This document shows positions 8,193 through 43,476 of a stretch of DNA of 61,830 bases, piece by piece (within the stretch, counting starts at the first letter, position 1; each line of letters begins with the position of its first letter). Position numbers and translations under genes: made by a program. The stretch comes from Chromatiales bacterium (GTDB taxonomy: Bacteria > Pseudomonadota > Gammaproteobacteria > SZUA-152), in contig JALSGT010000084.1 in NCBI GenBank assembly GCA_026982555.1, positions 1 through 61,830 on the forward strand, written 5' to 3'. The notes below the pieces were generated by a model, which had not been told where the DNA came from, ran no database searches, and was given only the letters and a program-made list of their open reading frames with translations.

Positions 8193-8567
8193 CGTTTTAC
8201 TCTGTATTGAAGAAAGTCGAATAAAAAGCCGGTAATACTCCAGTCTCACCCTCTTTCCGGGTAGAGCTTAGCCTGACGGTTATGTGGGGGGATTCAGATG
8301 TCATTTTTTTTGCATTTTTTGTCTAACATAACTTCATTTGTATTTTTCGCGTCAATCTTTGTGTTCTGCATCAAGTATGAGCGACGGGTTGGCAATATCC
8401 GTATTTCTCATGGGTGAAAAAACGGGTATTGGAATCCGCACAAAGGCAGGTCGGCGTTTGGGGAGGTTAATTTTAGTATTTATGAAATGTGAGAAACTTC
8501 ACAGGTTCAGATTACGTTGAGGGGAGAGGGGGGAATATTATTGACGATATTACCCAGGAGATAAGAC

Positions 8568-9575
8568 ATGGCCGAAGATATCAAGTCCATTGGGAGAGTG
8601 CTTCAGCGTGTTTGTAATGATCTGCTAAAAAAACAAAATGTAGTGGCTACCGGCATCGGTTATAAAACCAGTGCGGGAGAGAGAAGCCTGAATCTTTCAA
8701 TCATCTGCTCGGTTGAGAAAAAGCTGCCCGGGATACAGCTCAACAGTAAAGACCTTATTCCGAAACAAATTGATGGAATCACAACAGACGTTGTTGAAAC
8801 TGGCCGCATACGGGCGCTTAATACGCATACCCAACGCCATCGACCGGCACCCGGCGGAGTCAGTATCGCCCACCGTGATGTTACGGCGGGTACACTCGGT
8901 TGTATTGTGAAAAAACAGGGTCAGCGGGTGATTCTTTCAAATAATCATGTGCTGGCCAACAGCAATGTTGCCGGGATTGGTGATGCTATTCTGCAGCCTG
9001 GTCCGGCTGATGGTGGTCAATTTCCGGGTGACCATATTGCGAACCTGCTTGAGTTTGTTCCCATTAATCTGAGCGGAGGTATTGGTTTACCGAGTGATTG
9101 CCCAATCGGCAATGGTTTCGCCGCGATACTGAATTTGCTTGCGGCCTCCACGGGGAGCCGTACCCGTCTGCAAGCGGTCAGGGTTCAGGCCGAAGATAAT
9201 CGGGTGGATGCCGCTATTGCCAAACCGCTTGATGACAATGATATTTCCGCTGACATTCTTGATATCGGAGCTATTGCCGGGATGACGCCAGGGGTATTGG
9301 GTATGGCGATCCAAAAAAGCGGTCGCACGACAGAATACACCACGGGGACTATCGAACAGATTGATGTCACTGTTAATGTGCAGTACGGCGGAGGACAGGT
9401 TGGCCGGTTCACTGATCAGATCATGGCCGGGGCTATGAGTCAGGGCGGTGACAGTGGTTCGGCGGTGCTGGACAATGACAGGAATCTGGTGGGGCTGCTG
9501 TTTGCCGGGAGCGATACAACGACAATTATCAATCGTATGGAAAATGTCTTTTCCGCCCTGGACCTGAGTCTTTGA
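8568..9575 (+). CDS. Trypsin-like (Nal1-type) serine protease with N-terminal pro-domain
   Basis: GTLGC, SNNHV (His), RVDAA (Asp), GDSGS (Ser). GGAGA RBS; no signal peptide. Confidence 0.8.
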   Translation: MAEDIKSIGRVLQRVCNDLLKKQNVVATGIGYKTSAGERSLNLSIICSVEKKLPGIQLNSKDLIPKQIDGITTDVVETGRIRALNTHTQRHRPAPGGVSIAHRDVTAGTLGCIVKKQGQRVILSNNHVLANSNVAGIGDAILQPGPADGGQFPGDHIANLLEFVPINLSGGIGLPSDCPIGNGFAAILNLLAASTGSRTRLQAVRVQAEDNRVDAAIAKPLDDNDISADILDIGAIAGMTPGVLGMAIQKSGRTTEYTTGTIEQIDVTVNVQYGGGQVGRFTDQIMAGAMSQGGDSGSAVLDNDRNLVGLLFAGSDTTTIINRMENVFSALDLSL

Positions 9576-9859
9576 ACCTGAAGCGGCTTGTCTTTTTTCT
9601 GTCATTGTTTTTTGCCATCACTTTGACTCTTGCGGAAACGGATATGCGAATGACTATTCAGCAGGTAAAGGAAAAATACCAGACAGAATTAATGGTTCTG
9701 CCGGGTGTGGTTTCGGTGGGTATTGGTCTGTCTGAAGGAGAAACGGTCATCAAGATTGGTTTGGATGGCAGGCATCCCGACACTGAAAAAGCATTGCCAA
9801 AAGCACTGGAAGGGTACAGGGTCGTCAGTCAGGATACAGGCACAATCAAAGCAAGATAA
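9572..9859 (+). CDS. Small exported protein resembling the pro-domain of the upstream protease
   Basis: TTG start overlaps the protease stop; signal-peptide-like N-terminus. ELMVLPGVVSVGIG and LPKALEG...DTGTIKA align with the protease's DLLKKQNVVATGIG and IPKQIDG...ETGRIRA. Confidence 0.65.
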   Translation: MNLKRLVFFLSLFFAITLTLAETDMRMTIQQVKEKYQTELMVLPGVVSVGIGLSEGETVIKIGLDGRHPDTEKALPKALEGYRVVSQDTGTIKAR

Positions 9860-10005: not shown

Positions 10006-10302
10006 TTATGCGGCCACGCTTCCTATTTTCTGATACTCAGCACCGCGCTCGTTCTGCAATTCCCACAGCGCGAGTGCTTGTTGCATCCCTAGCCAGCTCT
10101 CGGGGGTGGTATTCAGCAGGCGAGCGAGACGCATGGCCATGTCGGGGGAAAGGGCGCGCTTCTCGTGGATCAATTCGGACACAGTAAGGCGCGAGACGCC
10201 TAGACGCCGGGCAAGCTCGGCTTGACTCATACCCAGCTCGGGCAGGATGTCTTCACGCAGGATCGCGCCGGGGTGGGTGGGTTTGCGGGTTCTGGTAGCC
10301 AT
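10006..10302 (-). CDS. higA: HigA/VapI-family antitoxin
   Basis: PTHPGAILREDIL, HTH region, ALSPDMAMRLARLLNTTPESWLGMQ. Confidence 0.9.
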   Translation of the reverse strand: MATRTRKPTHPGAILREDILPELGMSQAELARRLGVSRLTVSELIHEKRALSPDMAMRLARLLNTTPESWLGMQQALALWELQNERGAEYQKIGSVAA

Positions 10303-10580
10303 CAGTGATAATCCTCCAGGTTTACGTTGTGGGCGTCGCTCTGCCGGAAAGCGAAGGTGATGCGCCAGTTACCGGAGACCGCCACGCTGTAGGTGCCTTT
10401 ACGCTTTCCAGCGAGTTCGTGGAAACGATAGCCGGGTAAGTTCATATCGGCTACTTCCACCGATGCCTCTAGCCGATCCAAAAGACGGCCAATACGTGCG
10501 GCATGCTGTGTGGTAATGCCACGCTTGCTCCCGGTCAGAAAAAAGCGCTCAAGCCCCTTGTGAGCAAAGGTCTTTATCAT
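10302..10580 (-). CDS. higB: HigB (RelE/ParE superfamily) toxin
   Basis: MIKTFAHKGLERFF, PGYRFHELAG, YSVAVSGNWRITFAF; toxin-first order; 1-nt overlap with higA. Confidence 0.9.
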   Translation of the reverse strand: MIKTFAHKGLERFFLTGSKRGITTQHAARIGRLLDRLEASVEVADMNLPGYRFHELAGKRKGTYSVAVSGNWRITFAFRQSDAHNVNLEDYH

Positions 10581-32325: not shown

Positions 32326-34215
32326 ATGCTTAGTGTCATAACGAAAAGAATCAACGTTTTCATATTTATTGTGGTGAGTATTCAAACTTCAGCAGCCATG
32401 GCAGATTTTTTGGAAATGCCGGAAGTTGAACAACTCAGGGATGCAGAAGAAAAAACCTTGCTGCGGGATCTGGACGTACCCGCAGTACGTGATCGTTCCC
32501 CTGATCCTGCTGCCGGGCCCAGGCTGGCGGTTTCGGAGTTCAGGATTCAGGGGCTGGTTGAATTTCCTGAACTGGGTATTACCCGCGAGGCATTGACTCA
32601 GCTGGTTGAAAATATTCGTTTTATTATCATGGGAGAAGGTAAACTTCTCGAATCAGGCTATACCATTGATGAGTTAGGTGAAATATCTGATCTTCTCGTT
32701 GAAATCGAGGAAGAGACTTTAGAGCGACATGTCTCTCCACTTGAAGTGCAAAAACTGGTTTGGCTGATCAGGGAGCAGCGCGGCAAACGCGGTGTTACTC
32801 TGGGCCAGATTGAAGCTGTCGCCAATAAAATCACTGATTTTTATCGAGAGCGTGGTTTTATTCTTGCCAAAGCGTTTATACCCAAACAACGAGTGCGGGA
32901 TGGTGTGGTCAGCCTTACGTTATTGCTGGGAATATTGGGAGAGGTCTCGATAAAAAACAACGACATGTACAATGCAGAAACGCTACGCTCCGTTTTTGAT
33001 GATCTTTTAACGAAACCTGTTACCAACAAAACAGTAGAAGAGAATTTGTTTGTTATCAATAGTTTTCCTGGCATTACCGTGGATGGTTATTTTGAGCCGG
33101 GTTTCCAGGTGGGTGATACCCGCCTGAACATTAACGTTAAAAATGAAGCGCGTTATAATGCCAATCTCAGAGCCGATAATCATGGTACAGATGAATCGGG
33201 TTTATACCGATTTTATGCAGACTTTCAGGTTAATAACCTGTTGGGTATCGCTGATTACATGAAAATGAGTTTATTGCAGGCAAAATCACCCGACAACACA
33301 ACATATTGGCAATTGGCCTTTGAAAGTAATTTTTTGAGTCCGCGCTTTCGTGGGGGGATTGAGTCATCGCGAAATCAATTTGTTGTGGATCAAACGGCCG
33401 CCGAAAACCTGGATTTGAGTGGCGGGGTTGATGTCTTTAGCGTATACGGTAAATATATACAAGAACGTGGGCGCACGAAAAATAGTCACTATGAGCTTCG
33501 ATTTGAAACAATAAAATCTGATACGGAAACTAGAAGCGGTACCACAGTTTTTGCCGGAAATAATAACGAGTTACGACACACTTCCATAAAATATAAGCTG
33601 GATTATCTGGATGATGCCAACAAACGTTTGCACGAGGGGAGTGTTAAATACACCCGGGGTAAGTTCGAGGTCGGAAAGTCGGCAAAGCAGGATGAGGATT
33701 ACAATATTCTATCTGCCGATTACACGCTGTTAACGTTTTTACGGATTCCATTTACAGAAAGCACCTCACGGCTCATTTTTCGTTCCAGTCTCCAGTATTC
33801 CGGGACCAATCTGTCAGCAATCGCGCGATTTTCTTTGGCAGGCTCAACGCGGGTACGCGGATTTTCACCCAGTTTTTTTACGGCGGATGATGCAGTGTAT
33901 CTTGGAACAGACTGGGTGTTTAACAGCCCCGATATGTTCGATGTTCAAATCGGCTCAGTTAATTTTAAAACGTTTGCCAAACCCTTTGTGTTTTTCGATT
34001 ATGCTTATGGTAAACAGTATGAGCTTCGCTCCGGGCAAAAAGACCCCACAGGACAATTAGCTGATATAGGTATCGGGTTGCAGTTTTCACATAGCCATAA
34101 TTTTAACGGGAATTTGCAGTTAGCCCATAAAATACTTGATCAGCTGACGGATATTGACGCGCAGTTAAAAGCAGATGATATAAGGTTGTTATTTGATATG
34201 CAGTACAGTTTTTAA
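32326..34215 (+). CDS. ShlB/FhaC/HecB-family (TpsB) outer-membrane transporter
   Basis: Signal peptide, POTRA motifs (YRERGFILAKAFIPKQ, INSFPGI), DNHG...G.YR, RVRGF in loop 6, terminal Phe. Confidence 0.85.
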   Translation: MLSVITKRINVFIFIVVSIQTSAAMADFLEMPEVEQLRDAEEKTLLRDLDVPAVRDRSPDPAAGPRLAVSEFRIQGLVEFPELGITREALTQLVENIRFIIMGEGKLLESGYTIDELGEISDLLVEIEEETLERHVSPLEVQKLVWLIREQRGKRGVTLGQIEAVANKITDFYRERGFILAKAFIPKQRVRDGVVSLTLLLGILGEVSIKNNDMYNAETLRSVFDDLLTKPVTNKTVEENLFVINSFPGITVDGYFEPGFQVGDTRLNINVKNEARYNANLRADNHGTDESGLYRFYADFQVNNLLGIADYMKMSLLQAKSPDNTTYWQLAFESNFLSPRFRGGIESSRNQFVVDQTAAENLDLSGGVDVFSVYGKYIQERGRTKNSHYELRFETIKSDTETRSGTTVFAGNNNELRHTSIKYKLDYLDDANKRLHEGSVKYTRGKFEVGKSAKQDEDYNILSADYTLLTFLRIPFTESTSRLIFRSSLQYSGTNLSAIARFSLAGSTRVRGFSPSFFTADDAVYLGTDWVFNSPDMFDVQIGSVNFKTFAKPFVFFDYAYGKQYELRSGQKDPTGQLADIGIGLQFSHSHNFNGNLQLAHKILDQLTDIDAQLKADDIRLLFDMQYSF

Positions 34216-34775
34216 TTGAGTCTAAAGCCCTGAAAGCATCTGCGCTTGCGTCCGCAAAGTGAAATTTTTTGGCTATTGATTGCAATAAAGATAACGCGCA
34301 AAGTTGTCAGTCTCTCTAACCAGGCAATATTCTGCACCGGGGCAAGTGCGCTTATTTGCGCTAACCCCGGTTAAATATTTTTGCAATCATCCACTTCTTG
34401 TTAGTTTTTAGGGTTAACCTATTGTTTTTAAAGTAAAATAATGAATAAATCGGCTTTGTGTGAATATGTCACATAAATATGTGGGAATTTCAGTACAATG
34501 GGCCGCTATCGTTGGTGCTGTTGATAGCACAGCCTCAAAGACCCCTTCAAAGCAGCGAGACCGGCCCGAAAGTCAGGCCTTGCTGGGTGCCAGAGTTGGC
34601 GGGACGGGATCATGGGGCGCAATGATAGGCTATGTTAAACGACCCGATAGAAAATGTTTGGAATCATAGAGGTTACAAAGGAATGCTGGTTGTTCATCGC
34701 TAACAATTACCCTATTATTGCAAGTCGATTTACGGGTATTTTTTTGTTTAAACGGGAAGGAGAGAGGAAAGTAAA

Positions 34776-35258
34776 ATGGCAATATATCTTGAATATGATG
34801 GAATACCGGGAAATGTAACGGCTGAAGGTTTTGAGAAGTGCATCAAAATCAGCTCAGTGAGTTTTGGTACGTCACGCCCGATTACCATGGAAGCGGGTAA
34901 AATGGCTAACCGTGAAGTCGGCAAGCCCACTGTTTCTGAAGTAAATCTCACGAAAATAGCCGATAATTCTGTTGCTGCACTGTTTAAAGAGTCTGTTTCC
35001 GGTTCGTCAGGCAAAAATGCAGTTCTTAAATTTACTCGCACTGGCAGTGACGGTGTTGAAGAATTTATGGAATATTCGCTGGAAAATTGCCTGGTCAGCA
35101 GCTACCACATTGCTGCCAACGGCGATGCCGAGCCAGAAGAAACGATCACGTTGAGTTTTTCCAAGTGTGAAATCAACTACAAAGATCACGATGCAACCAA
35201 TAAGACGGGTAGTCCGCAACGCGCAGGTTACGATCTGACAAAAGCTGTACCGTTATAA
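34776..35258 (+). CDS. hcp: T6SS tube protein Hcp
   Basis: MAIYLEYDGIPG, NLTK..D, L.N..VSSY, E.ITLSF..CEINY. Confidence 0.9.
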   Translation: MAIYLEYDGIPGNVTAEGFEKCIKISSVSFGTSRPITMEAGKMANREVGKPTVSEVNLTKIADNSVAALFKESVSGSSGKNAVLKFTRTGSDGVEEFMEYSLENCLVSSYHIAANGDAEPEETITLSFSKCEINYKDHDATNKTGSPQRAGYDLTKAVPL

Positions 35259-35278
35259 AGAAAAAGAAAGCCCAATGA

Positions 35279-35322
35279 CATTGGTGCTGCCTGTTTAAGG
35301 GTGGCACCAATGTTTGTTTTGT
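35279..35322 (+). terminator. Intrinsic terminator/attenuator after hcp
   Basis: CATTGGTGC...GCACCAATG stem followed by TTTGTTTT. Confidence 0.6.
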
Positions 35323-35396
35323 TATTGCATGTATGACTGCATACCTGAGAACCGGGGTGTGCCTGCCGCAAATATTTGAGTTAGGGAGTTCAGTAA

Positions 35397-37328
35397 ATGA
35401 GTGATTTTACTCAGGACAGCCGTCTTATCGCTGTTGACACACCTTTGGGGAAGGATGTGCTTTTGCTGGCCTCATTTGATGGCGCTGAATTTGTCTCTTC
35501 TCCATTTGAGTTTCATCTGACCGCGCTGTCTCTCAATCTTGAAATCAAACCGGAAGACCTCGTCGGTAAACCGATTACGGTTAAAATTCAAAATGAACAT
35601 GGCCGGGTTTTTCATGGTCTTGTCAGCAAGTTTGCGTTTGGCGAAATAACCTCCAGTAGTTTCCGCAAGTATCATCTGGTGATGGTGCCATGGCTTCAGT
35701 TCCTTTCTCATACCGAAAATCGTCGTATTTTTCAAAACAAAAACTCAAAGGATATCATCAGCCAGGTATTTGCTGATCTGGGGTTTGGTGATTTTGATTT
35801 CAGGGCAAGTGGTGGTGTGCCAAGGGAGTATTGCGTTCAATATGGTGAAAGCGATCTGGATTTTGTTTCCCGGCTACTGGAAGAGGAAGGCTATGCCTAT
35901 TACTTCACCCATGGGGAAGACAAGCACACGCTGATCATTGTTGACAAAGCGAATGCTTATGATGAATGTACTGAAACGAATTTAACTTGCTCAAAGGGCT
36001 CGACACCGGACTCTGAAATACAGAGCTGGGAACATCATTATGAGTTCAGGAAAGGTGGCTGGATTGTAAATGACTTTAATTTTAAAGAGCCGAAAAAAAG
36101 CCAGGAAGTAGAAACAAAATCAAAAAGCAAATTTGCCAATAACAGCAAATTCAAACATTATGAATACCCTGATTTATATGATGTCGGCTCGGGGGCTGAT
36201 CTGGTTAAGGTCCGTATGGAAGCAGAAGAAGCGCCGATGGATACCATTACCGGCTCCAGCAATTGCAGTACGTTTTATGCCGGTGGTTTTTTTAAGCTGG
36301 ACAAACACGATGCCAAGAGTGAGCAGGGTAGCTATACTTTGCTGCGAGTCGAACATCATGCCTCTGATTCCAGTTATTACACAGGCGAAAAAGGCGAGAC
36401 AGGTTACAGTAATAAATTTGATTGCATTTCATCGGACGTACATTTTCGGCCAGCCCGGGAGCATCCGCGTCCTGTAATGAAGGGGCCGCAGTCTGCAATA
36501 GTCACAGGCCCGGCAGGCGAAGAAATTTATATTGATGAGTTTGGCCGAATCAAGGCCCAGTTTATCTGGGATCGGGAAGGGAAAAATGACGAGAACAGCT
36601 CCTGTTTTCTGCGTGTCATGCAGGCCTGGGCAGGTAATGGCTGGGGTACTTCATTTATTCCTCGTATTGGCCACGAAGTAATTGTCACGTTTCTTGATGG
36701 TGACCCGGACCGGCCGATTGTGACCGGAACTGTTTATAACGGGGTTAACAAACCACCTTATGGCTCAAAAACACAAAGTGGTATCAAAACGCACTCAACC
36801 AAAAGTGGCACCGCAGCAAACTTTAATGAACTGCGCTTTGAAGATAAAAAGGGCTCGGAACAGGTTTATATCCATGCCGAAAAAAACCTGGATACAATGG
36901 TCGAGAACAACGAAACCTTAACCGTTGATAATGACCGTACAAAAACCATCAAAAATGATGAAAATTCAACAATAGAAAATGACCGTAACAAAACGGTCAA
37001 TAACAACCAGACGGAAACCATAAAAAAGAATAAAACCATTGATGTTGGCAAGGACCACAAAGAAACCATTGGGTCAAATATGACGATTATGGTTGATAAG
37101 GATCTGAAAGAATCCGTTAAGGGTAACTATACAGAGAGCGTCACAAAAGATTATGCATTGCAGGCCAAGACAATTACTTTACAGGCAAATGATAAAATTA
37201 CCATCCGAACAGGTGCTGCCCAGATAGTGATGAAAAGTAATGGCGATATCACCATGAGCGGAAAGACGATCAATATCAAAGGCTCCGGTAATGTGGTGAT
37301 TAATGGCAGTAAGGTGATTACCAATTAG
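35397..37328 (+). CDS. vgrG: T6SS spike protein VgrG
   Basis: REYCVQYGESDLDFVSRLLEEEG, GPQSAIVTGPAGEEIY, IPRIGHEVIVTFLDGDPDRP, NELRFEDKKG; about 8-aa gp5-type C-terminal repeats; no effector extension. Confidence 0.93.
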   Translation: MSDFTQDSRLIAVDTPLGKDVLLLASFDGAEFVSSPFEFHLTALSLNLEIKPEDLVGKPITVKIQNEHGRVFHGLVSKFAFGEITSSSFRKYHLVMVPWLQFLSHTENRRIFQNKNSKDIISQVFADLGFGDFDFRASGGVPREYCVQYGESDLDFVSRLLEEEGYAYYFTHGEDKHTLIIVDKANAYDECTETNLTCSKGSTPDSEIQSWEHHYEFRKGGWIVNDFNFKEPKKSQEVETKSKSKFANNSKFKHYEYPDLYDVGSGADLVKVRMEAEEAPMDTITGSSNCSTFYAGGFFKLDKHDAKSEQGSYTLLRVEHHASDSSYYTGEKGETGYSNKFDCISSDVHFRPAREHPRPVMKGPQSAIVTGPAGEEIYIDEFGRIKAQFIWDREGKNDENSSCFLRVMQAWAGNGWGTSFIPRIGHEVIVTFLDGDPDRPIVTGTVYNGVNKPPYGSKTQSGIKTHSTKSGTAANFNELRFEDKKGSEQVYIHAEKNLDTMVENNETLTVDNDRTKTIKNDENSTIENDRNKTVNNNQTETIKKNKTIDVGKDHKETIGSNMTIMVDKDLKESVKGNYTESVTKDYALQAKTITLQANDKITIRTGAAQIVMKSNGDITMSGKTINIKGSGNVVINGSKVITN

Positions 37329-37346
37329 TGCTAATGGTGATTAGCC

Positions 37347-37904
37347 GTGAAATATAACGAGCCTGATATAACTCAAGCGCAAGAAGAAACCCTGTCATTG
37401 CCCTCCGGTATAGCGCCTGGTGAGATTGTCATCGGCACTCTGGTGGACACTGACAAACAGGGGCAGCCGCTTGTGGACTTTTCGGAAAACCCGGCCAATA
37501 AGCCATTAAAAGCAATAGCAACGCTTGTCCTTACCCAAAGGCATGTCGGCAGGCAGGTTGCCCTCCTGTTTACAAACGGAAATCTGCAAAACCCGGTGAT
37601 CATGGGTATGATCCACAGCCCTTTGCAAGACATGCTGGAAAATTTTGGGCAATTTCAGACCAAAGATGAACCTGATAATGAGACCCGGAACGATGCAGGG
37701 CAAGAGGGTGATCTGAAAGTAGATGATGTCCTGGTTGATGGTCAGAAAATTATTTTTGAAGCCAAGGATAAAATCGTCCTGAAATGTGGTAAATCAAGCA
37801 TTATCCTGACCAAAGATGGAAAAGTGTCAATACGCGGAAAAAACGTATTGAGCCGCGCAACGGGTACCCATCAAATCAAGGGCAGTGCGTTTCAGGTGAA
37901 CTGA
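37347..37904 (+). CDS. DUF6484-like protein (gp5 OB-fold plus short needle-like tail)
   Basis: VALLF.NG...PVIMG followed by VLKCGKSSIILTKDGKVSIRG; position between vgrG and DUF2169. Confidence 0.65.
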   Translation: MKYNEPDITQAQEETLSLPSGIAPGEIVIGTLVDTDKQGQPLVDFSENPANKPLKAIATLVLTQRHVGRQVALLFTNGNLQNPVIMGMIHSPLQDMLENFGQFQTKDEPDNETRNDAGQEGDLKVDDVLVDGQKIIFEAKDKIVLKCGKSSIILTKDGKVSIRGKNVLSRATGTHQIKGSAFQVN

Positions 37905-37924
37905 CACTGGCGTCGGTATCGACT

Positions 37925-38917
37925 ATGTTACAACTTCGCAACAGCAGTCCCTTTGCAGCCGGCCTTGCCCTGTTTCCGAATGAAGAGGGTATTGATACAT
38001 TCTACTTGCTGGTTCGGGCCACGTTCAATATTGGCGAACAATGGACTCTGGCCGATGAACAACTTCCCCCCGCAGAGGGTGATGAGTATTGGGGAGACCC
38101 TGAGAAATCCAGTATTAAACAAGTATCGGATTATCATACCGGCAAACCGGGCAGCGATATTATCATGCTCGGTAATGCTTTTGCCCCCGATGGAAAAGAA
38201 GTTCAGCAACTGGACGTCAGCCTGACGGTTGGCCAGATACATAAAACTGTCCGTGTCTTTGGTGATCGTTATTGGCAGAATGGACGTATATCCGCCCCGA
38301 AGCCATTTCATACCATGGCGATGATTTATGAAAATGCTTACGGTGGAACACATCTTGTCGATGACGTCGCCATTGCGACGGAAGAACGAAACCCTGTCGG
38401 CTGTGGTTTTGCAGGGCAGCGCACGGCAGAAGAAATGAATGGTCTGCCTCTGCCTAATCTGGAAGACCCCAGTGACCTGATTACCCGTATTTCCCAACAA
38501 CCTGTTCCCGCCTGTTTTGGCGCAAGCGCTCCGCACTGGCAGCCACGCGCCGCTTATGCCGGTACATATGATGCTGCATGGCAAACAGGCCGGGCACCTT
38601 TCCTGCCGGAAGACTTTGACAAGCGTTTTTGTAATATGGCGCACCCTGATCTGGTGTATGCCGGGTTTCTCAAAGGAGGGGAACCTGTCACCATTACTCA
38701 CATGCATCCACACGGCACCATTAACTTTGAAATACCCCACGTCCGGCTGCATGCAGATGTGACCGTTGCGGGAACTTCTGTGCAGCCCCCGTTTAACCTG
38801 GAAACAGTAATCATAGAGCCGAACCGGTTAAAACTTGGCATGGTCTGGCGTGCCGCAATGCTGTGTGACAAACAGGCACAGCTGATCAGTGACGTGGCAC
38901 TCAAATTGTCAAAATGA
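37925..38917 (+). CDS. DUF2169 T6SS adaptor/chaperone
   Basis: KPGSDIIMLG, KTVRVFGDR, YENAYGG, NPVGCG, RAAYAGTYD..W, P.LPEDFD.RF.N.A, LETVIIEP. Confidence 0.88.
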   Translation: MLQLRNSSPFAAGLALFPNEEGIDTFYLLVRATFNIGEQWTLADEQLPPAEGDEYWGDPEKSSIKQVSDYHTGKPGSDIIMLGNAFAPDGKEVQQLDVSLTVGQIHKTVRVFGDRYWQNGRISAPKPFHTMAMIYENAYGGTHLVDDVAIATEERNPVGCGFAGQRTAEEMNGLPLPNLEDPSDLITRISQQPVPACFGASAPHWQPRAAYAGTYDAAWQTGRAPFLPEDFDKRFCNMAHPDLVYAGFLKGGEPVTITHMHPHGTINFEIPHVRLHADVTVAGTSVQPPFNLETVIIEPNRLKLGMVWRAAMLCDKQAQLISDVALKLSK

Positions 38918-40076
38918 GCCATCTGATGATCACAGACATATTCAATCAGACTCAATCATGACTGCAAATGGACAAAGCAAAAAAATGCCGGATTCAGATA
39001 CATTTCAGCCTCCGACGCGACCTGTTATTGTGCATGATGTCACCATGCTGTCACCACTGGGGGATGATGTTATGCAGGTGGCGGCGGCGGTACGTGCAAA
39101 CATTAGCCGGTTTAACGAAAGTGTTTTTTACAATCAAAAATTATTGCCCCTCAAAATGGCACTGGTGCCCGATGGGATTTTACCCCCTCTTGATGATGAA
39201 CTGCTTAAAAAAGGGGGTATTTCCCCCTGGCAAAAACGTTTATTAAGGCTGGCAACCCGCCCACTGACAACACTGTTTAAGATGCGGGGCAGAGGCGCAT
39301 TACCCCTTTTCCTCGCCTGTCCGGAAACACTGCCTGGGCGTCGTTATCGCATCACCGACCGTTTTCTTTCATTGCTGAAAATACAGACAAAGCAAGCGAT
39401 TGATATGGAGAACAGTTATCTGTTTCCTTTTGGGCGTGCGGCAGGATTGTGTGCGTTGGAAGCTGCCATGCTCCATATTGAAAAACACCCGGGCAGTCAG
39501 GCGATAGTAGGCGGTATTGATAGTTATATTGATCCCTACCTGCTGAGCACTTTGGCACAAAAGAACCGCATCGCGGGACATGGCGTTATGGATGGCTTTA
39601 TCCCGGGAGAGGGAGCCGCTTTTTTATTAATAGGTGCGGCGTCTCAGTTATCTGCTGAAGCCTCAATAGACACTGGATCTCGCTTTATATTATACCCGCC
39701 CGGTATTGCTTCAGAACCGGGGCACCGCTACTCCCCTGAACCGTATCGCGGGGAAGGGCTGGCTAACGCCGTCACCGATGCACTGGATGTTAACCTAAAT
39801 TCAAAAGTTGATACGGTGATGATCAGTTTCAACGGCGAAAACTTTTTTGCGAAAGAGTGGGGTGTGGCGGCAATACGCAATGCCGCTGCATTTACCGCAG
39901 AACCGGCATTTTTACACCCCGCAGATTGTTTTGGTGATGTCGGTGCCGCGTTTGGACCCATGGCCATAGGGGTCAGTATCATGGGAATGCATAAAAAATA
40001 TTTAACATCACCGGCATTGATCTGCTGTTCTTCCGAAATGGAACAGCGTTCAGCCGTTTGTTTAACCGTTATTTAA
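38889..40076 (+). CDS. Thiolase/ketoacyl-synthase-like T6SS accessory protein (PRK06147-like)
   Basis: GGIDSY, FIPGEGAAFLL, NGE.F.AKEW, HPADCFGDVGAA; typical partner of DUF2169. Confidence 0.8.
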   Translation: MTWHSNCQNEPSDDHRHIQSDSIMTANGQSKKMPDSDTFQPPTRPVIVHDVTMLSPLGDDVMQVAAAVRANISRFNESVFYNQKLLPLKMALVPDGILPPLDDELLKKGGISPWQKRLLRLATRPLTTLFKMRGRGALPLFLACPETLPGRRYRITDRFLSLLKIQTKQAIDMENSYLFPFGRAAGLCALEAAMLHIEKHPGSQAIVGGIDSYIDPYLLSTLAQKNRIAGHGVMDGFIPGEGAAFLLIGAASQLSAEASIDTGSRFILYPPGIASEPGHRYSPEPYRGEGLANAVTDALDVNLNSKVDTVMISFNGENFFAKEWGVAAIRNAAAFTAEPAFLHPADCFGDVGAAFGPMAIGVSIMGMHKKYLTSPALICCSSEMEQRSAVCLTVI

Positions 40077-40091
40077 GGAGGTATCCGCGTT

Positions 40092-40472
40092 ATGGCTTGC
40101 AGCGTATTTGTTAATGGAAGAGGGATTGCCCATAAAGGCAGTGGCGGGAAATCAATTGTTTTTCCAGATGTCTGTAAAACACCGGTTGGCCCTTCCGTTG
40201 TGCCGATTCCTTACCCTAATCTGGGCCAGTCGGCGGATACCTCAAAAGGGCCAAAATCCATCACCATCAATGGCCAGATGCCCATGGTCAAAGGGGCAAA
40301 ATACGCAATGAGCAGTGGCGATGAAGCGGGCGTTGCCAAAGGTATTATCAGTGGCAAAATCAAAGGTGAATGTGAATTTCTCATGTACTCCTTTGACGTG
40401 AAATTTGAAGGAAAAAACGTCTGTCGCATGGGTGACCCGTTATGGCACAACAAAAAGAATATTTTAGGGTAG
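40092..40472 (+). CDS. Stand-alone PAAR-like DUF4150 (PIPY) spike-tip protein
   Basis: FPDVCKTP...PIPYPN, SSGDEAG, SFDVKFEGKNV.R.GD; stops after 126 aa with no toxin fusion. Confidence 0.88.
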   Translation: MACSVFVNGRGIAHKGSGGKSIVFPDVCKTPVGPSVVPIPYPNLGQSADTSKGPKSITINGQMPMVKGAKYAMSSGDEAGVAKGIISGKIKGECEFLMYSFDVKFEGKNVCRMGDPLWHNKKNILG

Positions 40473-40514
40473 CGAATACCGTTACGGTGTGGATAACAAC
40501 CACGGAGAAAAACA

Positions 40515-41360
40515 ATGACAGAGATGATTGAACCCGTATCGGTGGCCACCATTGATCACGAAGACCATGAAGAAGAAACCTGTGCATTTTGTACCGCACC
40601 GACCAAACCCACCGATGAAAAAAACACGCTTCAGGATGATTTTGATGAAGACAAACATGAAATTCCGGGCCTGAATGATGATGGTATGGCACTTAAAAAC
40701 AGCGCCGGGCAGCTCGGCAAAAACCTCGCCAAAAAAGGAGCGGCGCAGATCACTGCCGAGGTGAAACTGGCCGGACTTGCCAAAATACTGCCGGTGACCA
40801 GTGCTGCCCATCATGTGATTCCCGGCAATGCAGCGTTAAAGAGAAGTGAAATCATGCAATACCTGCATACCGACGGCATGGCCACGGGCAATATCGGTTA
40901 TAACGTCAACAACGATGAAAATGGTATCTGGCTGGTGGGTAATTATGCCTTGCGTGGCAAAAAAGGGTTGCCCGCCTGGGGGCCTGAAGGTGCTCATTTC
41001 ACTGTCGGTAAACCGGGTGTGCCGGGCACTAAAAAAGACCCTTATGAATATGCCAAAGCAGCGATAGAAGCAACCGGTTACCAGTTCCACGATGGCCATG
41101 ATAAATACAGTATATTTGTGAAAAAAACATTGGATTTGATCGCCAAAAAAATGGAGCTGACGCAGGATGTCTGGTGTATCGAGGCAGCCAATAAGCCGAA
41201 TAAACCTGAAGAGCAGCAACTGTTCATGTTGGTCAACCGGCTCAACACGGTCTCACGACGCATGAAAACCCTGTTGCAAAACCCGGGTAAAAACTGGAAA
41301 AAAAATGTTTTTACCTCCCGTTTCAGTGAAAAATATATCGAAGATGAAATCTATAAATAA
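40515..41360 (+). CDS. AHH-family (HNH/EndoVII fold) nuclease effector, copy 1
   Basis: SAAHHVIPG, GYNVNNDENGIWL, QFHDGHDKY; own GGAGA RBS. Confidence 0.8.
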   Translation: MTEMIEPVSVATIDHEDHEEETCAFCTAPTKPTDEKNTLQDDFDEDKHEIPGLNDDGMALKNSAGQLGKNLAKKGAAQITAEVKLAGLAKILPVTSAAHHVIPGNAALKRSEIMQYLHTDGMATGNIGYNVNNDENGIWLVGNYALRGKKGLPAWGPEGAHFTVGKPGVPGTKKDPYEYAKAAIEATGYQFHDGHDKYSIFVKKTLDLIAKKMELTQDVWCIEAANKPNKPEEQQLFMLVNRLNTVSRRMKTLLQNPGKNWKKNVFTSRFSEKYIEDEIYK

Positions 41361-41376
41361 ATAGAGAGAGGCAAGT

Positions 41377-41979
41377 ATGTTTTATATGCTGGATGATACC
41401 ACCGCAAAAAAGCGCTGGCTGGATATTGATGACTATCTGGATCATTATGGTTTTCGCTCACAATATGGAACAACGTTCAGGTGGTTTAATGGGTCGATAT
41501 TCGTTGACGCCCCCCCTGAACCCTTTGAAATAAAGTTGCGACCGCTTGAGGTTGACCATCCTGATCACGGCCCACTGATTCCATCATACTATGATGACAC
41601 AATTGTTTTGATGCGCGATGATCTGATCGAGGCGATGGTGACCTTTGGTGTGGATAACCTGGACACCTATGCGGTGAACCTCACCGACCCGGATGATGGC
41701 ACGGTTTACACTAACTACAAGGCGGTCAATATCATCGGCGTAGTGGCTGCCGCCGACATGAAAAAATCCACCGCAACGGTGCATAACAACATCCCGCTGG
41801 TGGATGTCTCCTTCGACAAGCTCGTGATCAATGAAGAAAAGGTGCAGGATTTACTGCTCTTTCGTCTGGCAGAAAACCTGATGACCATCCTGATGAACGA
41901 GCACCTGCGCAACTATCTGCTGGAAAAAGGGTTTGATGATATTAAGTATTACCCGCTGGATGAAGTGGCGACACCATAA
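41377..41979 (+). CDS. Imm11/DUF1629-like immunity protein, copy 1
   Basis: Immediately downstream of the toxin; V.LMRDDL.EAM..FGVDN, Y..VNIIG, LFRLAEN. Confidence 0.72.
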   Translation: MFYMLDDTTAKKRWLDIDDYLDHYGFRSQYGTTFRWFNGSIFVDAPPEPFEIKLRPLEVDHPDHGPLIPSYYDDTIVLMRDDLIEAMVTFGVDNLDTYAVNLTDPDDGTVYTNYKAVNIIGVVAAADMKKSTATVHNNIPLVDVSFDKLVINEEKVQDLLLFRLAENLMTILMNEHLRNYLLEKGFDDIKYYPLDEVATP

Positions 41980-42013
41980 CGGTGATGATGATGGTAATCA
42001 CGGAGAACAGACA

Positions 42014-42859
42014 ATGACAGAGATGATTGAACCCGTATCGGTGGCCACCATTGATCACGAAGACCATGAAGAAGAAACCTGTGCATTTTGTACCGCACCG
42101 ACCAAACCAACCGATGAAAAAAACACGCTTCAGGATGATTTTGATGAAGATAAAAATGAAATCCCGGGCCTGAATGATGATGGCATGGCACTTAAAAACA
42201 GCGCCGGGCAGCTCGGCAAAAACCTCGCCGAAAAAGGAGCGGCGCAGATCACTGCCGAGGTGAAACTGGCCGGACTTGCCAAAATACTGCCGGTGACCAG
42301 TGCTGCCCATCATGTGATTCCCGGCAATGCAGCGTTAAAGAGAAGTAAAATCATGAAATACCTGCATACCGACGGCATGGCCACGGGCAATATCGGTTAT
42401 AACGTCAACAACGATGAAAATGGTATCTGGCTGGTGGGTAATTATGCTTTGCGTGGCAAAAAAGGGCTGCCCGCCTGGGGGCCTGAAGGTGCTCATTTTA
42501 CCGTCGGCAAACCCGAAGTGCCCGGCACGGGCAAAGACCCTTATGAATATGCCAAAGCGGCGATAGAATCAACCGGTTGCCAGTTCCACGATGGTCACGG
42601 GAAGTACAGTACATTTGTGGAAAAAACACTGGATTTGATTGCCAAAAAAATGGGGCTGACGCAGGATGTCTGGTGTATCGAGGCAGCCAATAAACCGGCG
42701 AAACCTGAAGAGCAGCAACTGTTCATGCTGGTCAACCGGCTCAACACAGTCTCTCGACGCATGAAAACTATGTTGCAAAACCCGGGTAAAAACTGGAAAA
42801 AGAATGTTTTTACCTCCCGTTTCAGTGAAAAATATATCGAAGATGAAATCTATAAATAA
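42014..42859 (+). CDS. AHH nuclease effector, copy 2
   Basis: Same 281-aa length as copy 1, intact AHH motifs, about 15 substitutions; 1499-bp offset from copy 1. Confidence 0.8.
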   Translation: MTEMIEPVSVATIDHEDHEEETCAFCTAPTKPTDEKNTLQDDFDEDKNEIPGLNDDGMALKNSAGQLGKNLAEKGAAQITAEVKLAGLAKILPVTSAAHHVIPGNAALKRSKIMKYLHTDGMATGNIGYNVNNDENGIWLVGNYALRGKKGLPAWGPEGAHFTVGKPEVPGTGKDPYEYAKAAIESTGCQFHDGHGKYSTFVEKTLDLIAKKMGLTQDVWCIEAANKPAKPEEQQLFMLVNRLNTVSRRMKTMLQNPGKNWKKNVFTSRFSEKYIEDEIYK

Positions 42860-42873
42860 ATAGAGAGGCAAGT

Positions 42874-43476
42874 ATGTTTTATATGTTAGATGATACCAGC
42901 GCAAAAAAACGCTGGCTGGATATCGATGATTATATAGATCGTTATGACTTTCGCTCACCGTATGACGATAAATTCACCTGGTTTAATGGGTCGATATTCG
43001 TTGACGCCCCCCCTGAACCCTTTGAAATAAAACTGCTGCCCTATGTTGCCGAAGACCCTGATCACGGCCCATTGATTCCATCATATTATGATCACAAAAT
43101 TGTCTTGATGCGCGATGACCTGGTCGAGGCGATGGAGGCTTTTGGTGTGGATAACCTGGACACCTATGCGGTGAACCTCACCGACCCGGATGATGGCACG
43201 GTTTACACTAACTACAAGGCGGTCAATATCATCGGCGTAGTGGCTGCCGCCGACATGAAAAAATCCACCGCAACAGTGCATAACAACATCCCGCTGGTGG
43301 ATGTCTCCTTCGACAAGCTGGTGATCAATGAAGAAAAGGTGCAGGATTTGCTGCTCTTTCGTCTGGCAGAAAACCTGATGACCATCCTGATGAACGAGCA
43401 CCTGCGCAACTATCTGCTGGAAAAAGGGTTTGATGATATTAAGTATTACCCGCTGGATGAAGTGGCGACACCATGA
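42874..43476 (+). CDS. Imm11/DUF1629-like immunity protein, copy 2
   Basis: 200 aa; identical to copy 1 after residue ~90, divergent before it. Confidence 0.72.
   Translation: MFYMLDDTSAKKRWLDIDDYIDRYDFRSPYDDKFTWFNGSIFVDAPPEPFEIKLLPYVAEDPDHGPLIPSYYDHKIVLMRDDLVEAMEAFGVDNLDTYAVNLTDPDDGTVYTNYKAVNIIGVVAAADMKKSTATVHNNIPLVDVSFDKLVINEEKVQDLLLFRLAENLMTILMNEHLRNYLLEKGFDDIKYYPLDEVATP

Follow-up and report, generated by a model that had tools for sequence, protein, structure and literature searches.

The window analysed here is a stretch of 61,830 nucleotides from a Chromatiales bacterium (assembly GCA_026982555.1, contig JALSGT010000084.1). The subject of this work is a pair of genes on its forward strand, which encode a serine protease related to rice NARROW LEAF 1 (NAL1) and a small partner protein. 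The features of the locus are as follows.

8556-8560, + strand: AGGAG Shine-Dalgarno sequence of the protease gene, 7 nt 5′ of the ATG, read directly from the sequence.
8568-9575, + strand: gene for the NAL1-type S1 serine protease, 335 aa, without a signal peptide.
8568-8822, + strand: N-terminal domain of the protease, residues 1-85, homologous to the ATP-binding and trimerisation domain of NAL1.
8946-8948, + strand: catalytic His127, in the motif SNNHVLAN, invariant in 39 homologues.
9207-9209, + strand: catalytic Asp214, in the motif VDAAIA, invariant in the same 39 homologues.
9453-9455, + strand: catalytic Ser296, in the motif GGDSGS, likewise invariant in the 39 homologues.
9572-9859, + strand: small partner gene, long proteoform of 95 aa with a TTG start.
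9572-9634, + strand: predicted Sec signal peptide MNLKRLVFFLSLFFAITLTLA, residues 1-21 and then ETD, with cleavage predicted between TLA and ETD.
9644-9652, + strand: two in-frame internal ATGs, at 9644-9646 (M25) and 9650-9652 (M27), at the junction of leader and mature protein.
9635-9856, + strand: mature domain of the small protein, predicted from hhalign and an AlphaFold2 model to have a minimal fold like that of the Pfam family NAL1_N.

The TTG of the small gene (9572-9574) overlaps the TGA stop codon of the protease gene (9573-9575) in the sequence TTGA, giving an overlap of 4 nt. Both open reading frames (ORFs) and this overlap had been reported in an earlier account made from the sequence alone, referred to below as the preliminary description, and direct reading of the sequence finds them at the same positions. 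The ATGs at 9644 and 9650 are candidate starts for a leaderless proteoform of 69-71 aa, and the database gene call for the small protein of the window has 71 aa and starts at 9644 (P0005). A scan of the locus for promoters and terminators gave nothing above the shuffled expectation.

The small protein is truly homologous to the N-terminal domain of the protease (residues 6-84 of the protease) and is a free-standing paralogue of that domain. A single BLASTP comparison aligned residues 28-94 of the small protein collinearly with residues 7-83 of the protease (26% identity over 77 residues, E = 5e-4), a value that is marginal alone. A direct search with the small protein returned only 17 close relatives, and a profile comparison using just these was also marginal (probability 30%). 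We then built a deep profile from 229 sequences of the domain, drawn from 150 representative proteins and 80 genomic loci. With deep profiles, hhalign aligned 69 of 70 columns with a probability of 97.2% (E = 2.8e-11), and comparison of alignment A4 with the N-terminal domain profile A5 gave a probability of 98.9% (E = 3.3e-17). When the small-protein profile was searched in six frames against the whole 2.43-Mb genome of the window, which is 73% complete, only the small gene itself (4.6e-30) and the protease at 8580-8816 (1.1e-8) were found. Protease N-terminal domains encoded on unrelated contigs from metagenomes are also matched by this profile, with values as low as 1e-13. The order helix, strand, strand, short helix, strand is common to the AlphaFold2 models of the protease N-terminal domain and the mature small protein (pLDDT 69). 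The likeness to the protease N-terminus noted in the preliminary description is thus confirmed by hhalign probabilities of 97-99%, by the genome search and by the models.

Relative to the N-terminal domain, the small protein has lost two loops, of 6 and 4 aa, which are the loops that hold ATP in NAL1, and its mature domain has a nearly invariant motif of its own, PGVVSVGIG. No Pfam, NCBIfam, PADLOC or PHROG family and no PDB sequence matched the small protein. A Pfam scan of 96 diverse relatives gave no match to NAL1_N, and the small protein and 95 relatives matched no Pfam family at all, the periplasmic inhibitor families ecotin (I11), serralysin inhibitor (I38) and chagasin (I42) included. 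The link of the partner to NAL1_N was established by profile-profile comparison and by the partners of a sister clade, described below. The partner was matched by 916 representative clusters. Generic α/β Foldseek matches of the small model (for example ribosomal S3, S7 and EscJ) were not significant and were rejected as meaningless.

In a Pfam scan the protease matched Trypsin_2 (4e-7, 31.2 bits, cut-off 27.6). The match of the window protease to NAL1_N was below the cut-off of 27 (0.008, 16.3 bits), and many of its close homologues have a precomputed match to this family (PF25608). Sequence searching found more than 7990 protein clusters of protease homologues, and a search of PDB sequences retrieved S1E enzymes (the Glu-specific protease 1hpg at 6e-6, and alpha-lytic protease) together with NAL1. 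When the AlphaFold2 model of the full-length protease was compared with the PDB using Foldseek, the top 34 matches were all rice NAL1, over approximately 340-360 columns with E of about 1e-10, and S1E enzymes followed at about 1e-3. The overall pLDDT of this model was mediocre, at 59, with values of 72-89 in the N-terminal domain. The A5 profile matched only NAL1 in the PDB (1.4e-3), at NAL1 residues 113-157 in the ATP-binding domain. The assignment of the protease to the Nal1 type in the preliminary description is therefore upheld by the Foldseek ranking and by the N-terminal domain profile. The invariant protease residues K33 and K52 align with the ATP-phosphate ligands R120 and K139 of NAL1, and are putative ATP-ligand positions. 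The triad H127, D214 and S296 is found in this order and is invariant in 39 homologues, so the enzyme should be active.

In NAL1 the N-terminal domain is permanent, and binds ATP as a structural cofactor (PMC12012508). It docks on the catalytic domain of the neighbouring subunit, burying 1,991 square ångströms, to form a trimer, and two trimers assemble into an active hexameric cage with the aid of an N-terminal extension (PMC12012508). This extension (aa 1-88, with β-strand 1) is missing from the bacterial protein, whose ORF begins at the N-terminal domain and could not be extended upstream. A signal peptide is absent from the window protease and impossible in 118 of 119 relatives, the remaining one having an upstream hydrophobic extension that is at best conceivable. 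The term pro-domain, used in the preliminary description for the shared domain, was not supported. The domain aligns with the ATP-binding domain of NAL1, and Pfam Pro_Al_protease was not matched by the protease, the small protein or the relatives of the small protein. The sole hint of a pro-region was a non-significant Foldseek match of the small model to 2pro_A, the pro region of alpha-lytic protease (TM 0.53, rmsd 3.1 Å, E 0.15).

Viral proteins also belong to the protease family. The PHROG family phrog_20754, annotated 'protease', matches the window protease at 2.4e-72. A putative serine protease of Aeropyrum coil-shaped virus is 30% identical to it (HE681887/NC_043427, 10511-11467), and a homologue with 32% identity is encoded by an uncultured 484-kb phage (LR756508, 90217-91158).

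To follow the pair in other genomes, we searched with the small-protein alignment using one genome per species. This gave 94 loci, of which 80 were kept (L001-L080), from Gammaproteobacteria, Desulfobacterota, Myxococcota, Chlorobiota, Nitrospirota, Gemmatimonadota, Rokubacteria, Planctomycetota and archaea of the Methanomicrobiales. The cassette is thus found in at least 8 phyla, and one of its carriers, Methylobacter psychrophilus Z-0021 (L062), is available in culture. A protease lies immediately upstream of the small gene in 77 of the 80 loci, and the other three are cut by contig ends, so that the two-gene unit, whose conservation the preliminary description had left to be checked, was found at all 77 testable loci. 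In two of them (L011, 5713-6261; L066, 5579-6207) the protease is truncated, to residues 294-335 or 1-115, and the small ORF is intact and leaderless. Carriers of the cassette make up 5 of the 13 genomes of the window's genus and 16 of the 31 of its family, and no carrier was found in any of 30 further families in its class. Completeness is 99-100% for several of the genomes in the genus without the cassette. Protease identity is already about 60% within the family and is similar across phyla (57-65% between phyla), and the protease tree mixes phyla; this plateau and the mixed tree argue for horizontal spread. Together, these observations indicate that the cassette is an accessory, patchily distributed and horizontally spread module.

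The small gene of the window is called in the database from the ATG at 9644, as a protein of 71 aa. This matches a possibility raised in the preliminary description, that the true start is the ATG near 9645-9651 and that there is no leader, and the leader was therefore tested directly. Statistics were compiled for the 62 loci in which an overlapping start is combined with a hydrophobic leader. Leader length is 20-24 aa in 59 of these; residues 2-5 contain K or R in 61, and acidic residues within positions 2-13 occur in one. A Cys is present in the c-region of 35 of the 62 leaders, often within a lipobox such as LAAC or AVAC. L035 and L080 are examples of loci with such a Cys. Nucleotide differences between related pairs are distributed over codon positions 1, 2 and 3 of the leader in the ratio 44:27:69 (p = 7e-5). 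Judged by these signatures, the leader is translated and is a Sec signal peptide, which in many lineages belongs to the lipoprotein type. The signal-peptide-like leader described earlier is thus coding, Sec-type and kept in relatives. It is present in 66 of 77 loci, with recurrent losses by deletion, and has been retained in diderm bacteria and lost in archaea. In one lipoprotein-type partner (L119, 2813-3217), the leader is separated from the domain by a Pro-, Gly- and Thr-rich linker of approximately 45 residues. Tat-dependent hitch-hiking of the protease on its partner was considered and rejected, as the n-regions of the leaders are short and a twin-arginine motif is not consistently present.

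The start of the long form overlaps the stop codon of the protease gene in 63 of 77 loci, as GTGA in 34, ATGA in 22 and TTGA in 7. This start showed no Shine-Dalgarno enrichment (-2.75 kcal/mol), which fits translational coupling by termination and reinitiation. A second candidate start lies four codons before the conserved Ile that opens helix 1, at the boundary between leader and mature protein. Among 78 loci, the codon in this column is ATG in 52 and GTG in 15. All 15 Val codons in the column are GTG, though GTG makes up 37.5% of the Val codons in these genes, and they arise from approximately 11 separate lineages. Ile and Leu, which could most readily replace Met conservatively, are never found there. 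The invariable use of GTG for Val and the absence of Ile and Leu show that the column is conserved as a start codon and not as a residue. When positions -6 to -2 were considered together, 75 of the 78 loci had an ATG, GTG or TTG, so that loss of the internal start is rare and it is better conserved than the leader (66/77).

The 15 nt 5′ of the internal start pair with the anti-Shine-Dalgarno sequence with a mean of -6.8 kcal/mol, compared with -3.1 kcal/mol for controls from the same genes (Mann-Whitney p = 2e-21). Synonymous recodings of the same peptide gave -4.1 against the observed -6.8 (Wilcoxon p = 2e-10). On this evidence the internal start and its Shine-Dalgarno sequence are selected at the nucleotide level. 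In addition, archaeal and other leaderless versions of the protein start exactly at the internal Met. With two conserved in-frame start codons present, one overlapping (63/77) and one internal (75/78), the family probably has two protein products, one a precursor that is exported and the other a cytoplasmic form without the leader. The possibility that translation starts at the ATG near 9645-9651 is therefore half right, since this is a conserved start with a Shine-Dalgarno sequence but the leader is also real. Gene callers divide between the two starts: among the best 150 representatives listed, 46 partner calls are of 76 aa or less and 69 are of 85-110 aa, and annotations of the partner family are inconsistent as a result. 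Alternative starts that change the localisation of a protein are a recognised idea, seldom demonstrated (PMC13515050).

A converse scan, starting from the protease and covering metagenomes, added a further 80 loci. Close protease homologues, with approximately 60% identity, mostly have a downstream partner (42 of 68 loci with room for one), and most of the remaining loci have a leaderless copy upstream or downstream that was overlooked in the first count. More distant proteases (48-56% identity) have a leaderless free-standing N-terminal domain ORF, which is upstream in 15 loci, L136 (2968-3246) and L141 (2995-3246) among them, or else downstream; a few have none. These sister-clade partners keep both loops and pass the Pfam NAL1_N cut-off of 27, with 33.5 and 28.2 bits. 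A tree built from 139 proteases splits into two clades. One, with 108 rows and a support of 98, accounts for all 82 partners that bear a leader, and the other, of 31 rows, has leaderless partners only, or none. Leaderless versions are also scattered within the leader clade, one of them as a nested archaeal group. As the sister clade is leaderless and leader-bearing partners are confined to one clade, the tree has the detached N-terminal domain as an old and general companion of these proteases, and the export signal as a later addition in one large clade. Long tblastn matches had suggested that proteases of about 50% identity are fusions with tandem N-terminal domains; this was rejected when separate small ORFs were found. 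A fusion of the two ORFs by -1 frameshifting was also considered; none of the best 150 representatives listed is of protease length.

The genes surrounding the cassette were then surveyed. When flanking ORFs of the 80 loci were clustered, nothing beyond the pair was kept in more than 10 loci, and the 133 nearest neighbour proteins, examined with Pfam and PADLOC, were ordinary and varied, with only scattered single defence hits. No PADLOC model matched the protease or the small protein, and the neighbour survey contained no vgrG, hcp, PAAR or adaptor genes. A link to defence islands, mentioned in the preliminary description, or to secretion is therefore not supported by the neighbour survey or PADLOC. 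Four of the 133 neighbour proteins belong to the chagasin inhibitor family I42 (best 8.6e-17), which does not look like part of the module. A 156-aa protein is encoded on the same strand approximately 70-350 nt 3′ of the small gene in eight loci (L014, L022, L026, L037, L039, L054, L072 and L011). It is a Desulfobacterales protein with an internally duplicated motif, ...EPSQEEIA.ALKSYFILNEIGNQI..QRK..., belongs to no Pfam family, is found in one lineage and is not module-like.

In the window itself, a HigB-like toxin (PF05015, 2e-17) and an HTH_3/Xre antitoxin are encoded on the minus strand directly 3′ of the pair (10006-10580), and this toxin and antitoxin pair is not kept beside the cassette at other loci. 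A ShlB/FhaC-type transporter followed by an auxiliary island of a type VI secretion system (T6SS) is found on the plus strand at 32326-43476, 25 kb from the protease pair. The island encodes Hcp, VgrG, DUF6484, DUF2169, a Tox-PAAR-like protein, two AHH nucleases and Imm11. The T6SS sheath protein TssC was found in one of five carrier genomes and not in the 73%-complete genome of the window; these are metagenome-assembled genomes, in which absence is not proven.

We tentatively propose, at somewhat less than an even chance, that the small protein acts in trans as a mimic of the N-terminal domain, binding to the protease at its catalytic domain, and that it does so as cytoplasmic and exported proteoforms. 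In this view the cassette is a self-contained, horizontally mobile module. Its first gene encodes a cytoplasmic, catalytically intact protease consisting of an N-terminal docking and nucleotide-binding domain and a chymotrypsin-fold domain. The second encodes a minimal, free-standing paralogue of the N-terminal domain, with two in-frame starts that would give two proteoforms. From the overlapping start, a precursor with a Sec signal, or a lipoprotein signal in many relatives, would be made in coupling with translation of the protease and exported; from the internal ATG or GTG, with its own Shine-Dalgarno sequence, a leaderless form would be made that stays in the cytoplasm. The small protein could then occupy the NAL1-like docking surface in trans and so control assembly or activity of the protease. 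It would most likely cap or restrain the enzyme, and a role as an assembly subunit is also possible. Strict adjacency, translational coupling and descent from a domain that docks in NAL1 all suggest that it works on its neighbour. The partners of the sister clade and of archaea are leaderless, the internal start outlasts the leader and the protease never bears a signal, which places the core partnership in the cytoplasm. The cytoplasmic form would then be the core partner, as in the sister clades and archaea, and the exported form would bring that binding domain to the periplasm, where its most plausible role would be that of a safeguard or binder. The analyses above establish the gene structure, homology and conservation, as well as the coding nature of the leader and the signal at the internal start; we infer that the small protein binds the protease, whether it inhibits or activates it, and what the exported form does.

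Several observations weigh against this proposal. Both AlphaFold2 models are of moderate confidence (pLDDT 59 and 69), and Foldseek found nothing significant with the small model. A cytoplasmic partnership leaves the export signal in approximately 80% of clade-II loci unexplained. The bacterial protease has no counterpart of the NAL1 extension (aa 1-88), so its quaternary structure may differ from that of NAL1. Proteases without any partner exist (L085, L122, L130, L133, L155 and L159), and the partner is therefore not obligatory for the protease. Finally, in the subclade of the window the internal Shine-Dalgarno sequence is weak (-3.5 kcal/mol), and the short form may therefore be minor there.

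The preliminary description had interpreted the genes as a protease and inhibitor acting across compartments, comparable to a toxin and its immunity protein. The protease would leave the cell by secretion or lysis, the exported partner would shield the periplasm of the producer and its kin, and the leaderless form would neutralise protease not yet released. The layout, a signal-less enzyme overlapped by a small gene with a Sec or lipoprotein leader, is typical of periplasm-directed effectors and their immunity proteins. The patchy, accessory distribution and phylum-mixing protease tree, the retention of the leader in diderms and its loss in archaea, and the Hcp-VgrG-PAAR island of the window are also in keeping with this. 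That island is, however, 25 kb away, no secretion, adaptor or toxin-delivery gene is linked to the pair in approximately 150 loci, TssC is found in just one of five carrier genomes, and there were no PADLOC hits. The protease is unusually conserved for a toxin, with its 57-65% identity between phyla, and 65% of the overlapping starts use GTG or TTG and lack a Shine-Dalgarno sequence. Such a weak, non-ATG coupled start would keep the partner at or below the level of the protease, the reverse of the usual situation for an immunity protein. An exported form and a leaderless form are both predicted, sister-clade partners are cytoplasmic only, and leaderless partners there and in archaea point to a core function in the cytoplasm. 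We therefore regard the cross-compartment interpretation as unlikely. We also considered that the protease represents a new family of released or delivered antibacterial cage proteases and the partner a dual-compartment antidote derived from its docking domain. With the coupled start, every exported copy would depend on one round of translation of the protease, and the internal start would supply a cytoplasmic copy, so that the domain would be present on both sides of the inner membrane. This seems quite unlikely.

The exported protein might instead be the sole real product, with a new periplasmic job unrelated to the protease and a pairing that is merely historical. Divergence of the domain, with its deleted loops, its own PGVVSVGIG motif and the lack of a Pfam NAL1_N match, would suit such a change of role, as would the strong conservation of the signal peptide. 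It would leave unexplained the presence of an adjacent protease or its remnant in 77/77 loci (truncated in L011 and L066), the 4-nt coupling kept in 63/77, the nucleotide-level selection on the internal start and its Shine-Dalgarno sequence, and the persistence of leaderless versions beside intact proteases, and we judge it very unlikely. Another possibility is that the free domain, like the pro region of alpha-lytic protease, acts as a pro-domain-like foldase in trans, folding the protease and then being discarded by export. The catalytic domain is closest in sequence to the S1E enzymes, which depend on a pro-region, and 2pro_A is the best low-RMSD match of the small model (TM 0.53, 3.1 Å), though with E = 0.15. 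The protease already has the domain in cis, partner-less proteases exist, Pfam Pro_Al_protease is not matched and the corresponding domain of NAL1 is permanent (PMC12012508). Moreover, a Sec substrate is exported within seconds, leaving little time for a folding role. All of this makes a foldase highly improbable.

With these results, a hypothetical gene pair becomes a testable system, with a near-universal detached docking domain, an export signal in one clade and a retained internal start. NAL1-like proteases are very common in prokaryotes (more than 7990 clusters), and the partner of the window type lies outside every Pfam family. To our knowledge neither the prokaryotic protease nor its partner has been studied, and a full-text literature search on NAL1 found no description of the prokaryotic cassette. 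NAL1 is a yield gene of rice, and the family could serve as a bacterial model for the control of cage-protease assembly by the NAL1 N-terminal domain.

None of the precedents compared here has all three features of the cassette, namely a detached paralogous domain, a leader of the Sec or lipoprotein type and an internal start that is conserved. Rice NAL1 (PDB 7Y77, 8PMM, 8HAU), the closest protein that has been characterised, resembles the bacterial protease in having an N-terminal domain of the ATP-binding type and an S1 catalytic domain. The bacterial protease is 16-19% identical to it and lacks both the N-terminal extension (aa 1-88) and the C-terminal tail. Unlike the bacterial cassette, NAL1 has no free-standing copy of the domain, and we know of no plant counterpart of the partner gene. 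Alpha-lytic protease and streptogrisin (S1E) are alike in that an N-terminal domain binds the catalytic domain, as is proposed here, and the S1E enzymes are nearest in catalytic sequence (1hpg, 6e-6). Their pro-regions fold and inhibit the protease in trans, and the coincidence of the end of the small protein with the end of the N-terminal domain is in line with this comparison. S1E enzymes are, however, secreted as prepro-proteins, whereas the window protease has no signal peptide and no Pfam pro-region match.

The serralysin systems AprA-AprI of Pseudomonas, SmaPI of Serratia and Inh of Erwinia, in which a serralysin-type protease and a periplasmic inhibitor are encoded in one operon, are the closest precedent for the cross-compartment idea. 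There too the protease has no N-terminal signal peptide, and a small Sec-exported inhibitor guards the periplasm. The serralysins are RTX metalloproteases with adjacent type I secretion genes and an inhibitor unrelated to the protease, whereas the cassette has no RTX protein or secretion system and its partner is paralogous. In the Rap-Phr systems of Bacillus, the gene of a cytoplasmic enzyme is followed by an overlapping small gene, whose product has a Sec signal and acts on the enzyme. Phr products are short, re-imported peptides of monoderms, whereas the cassette encodes a folded domain of 70 aa in diderms, and the two are not homologous. Alternative in-frame starts also give N-terminal proteoforms in the long and short CheA and in SctQ/SpaO, and the short form of SctQ is a copy of a domain of its partner, to which it binds (PMC13515050). 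Differences in localisation between proteoforms have been predicted for several Salmonella proteins (PMC13515050). The two predicted forms of the cassette protein, one cytoplasmic and one periplasmic, would differ by an entire signal peptide, and would do so across many phyla. If true, this would be a rare phylum-spanning case in which the choice of start codon decides between a cytoplasmic and a periplasmic protein.

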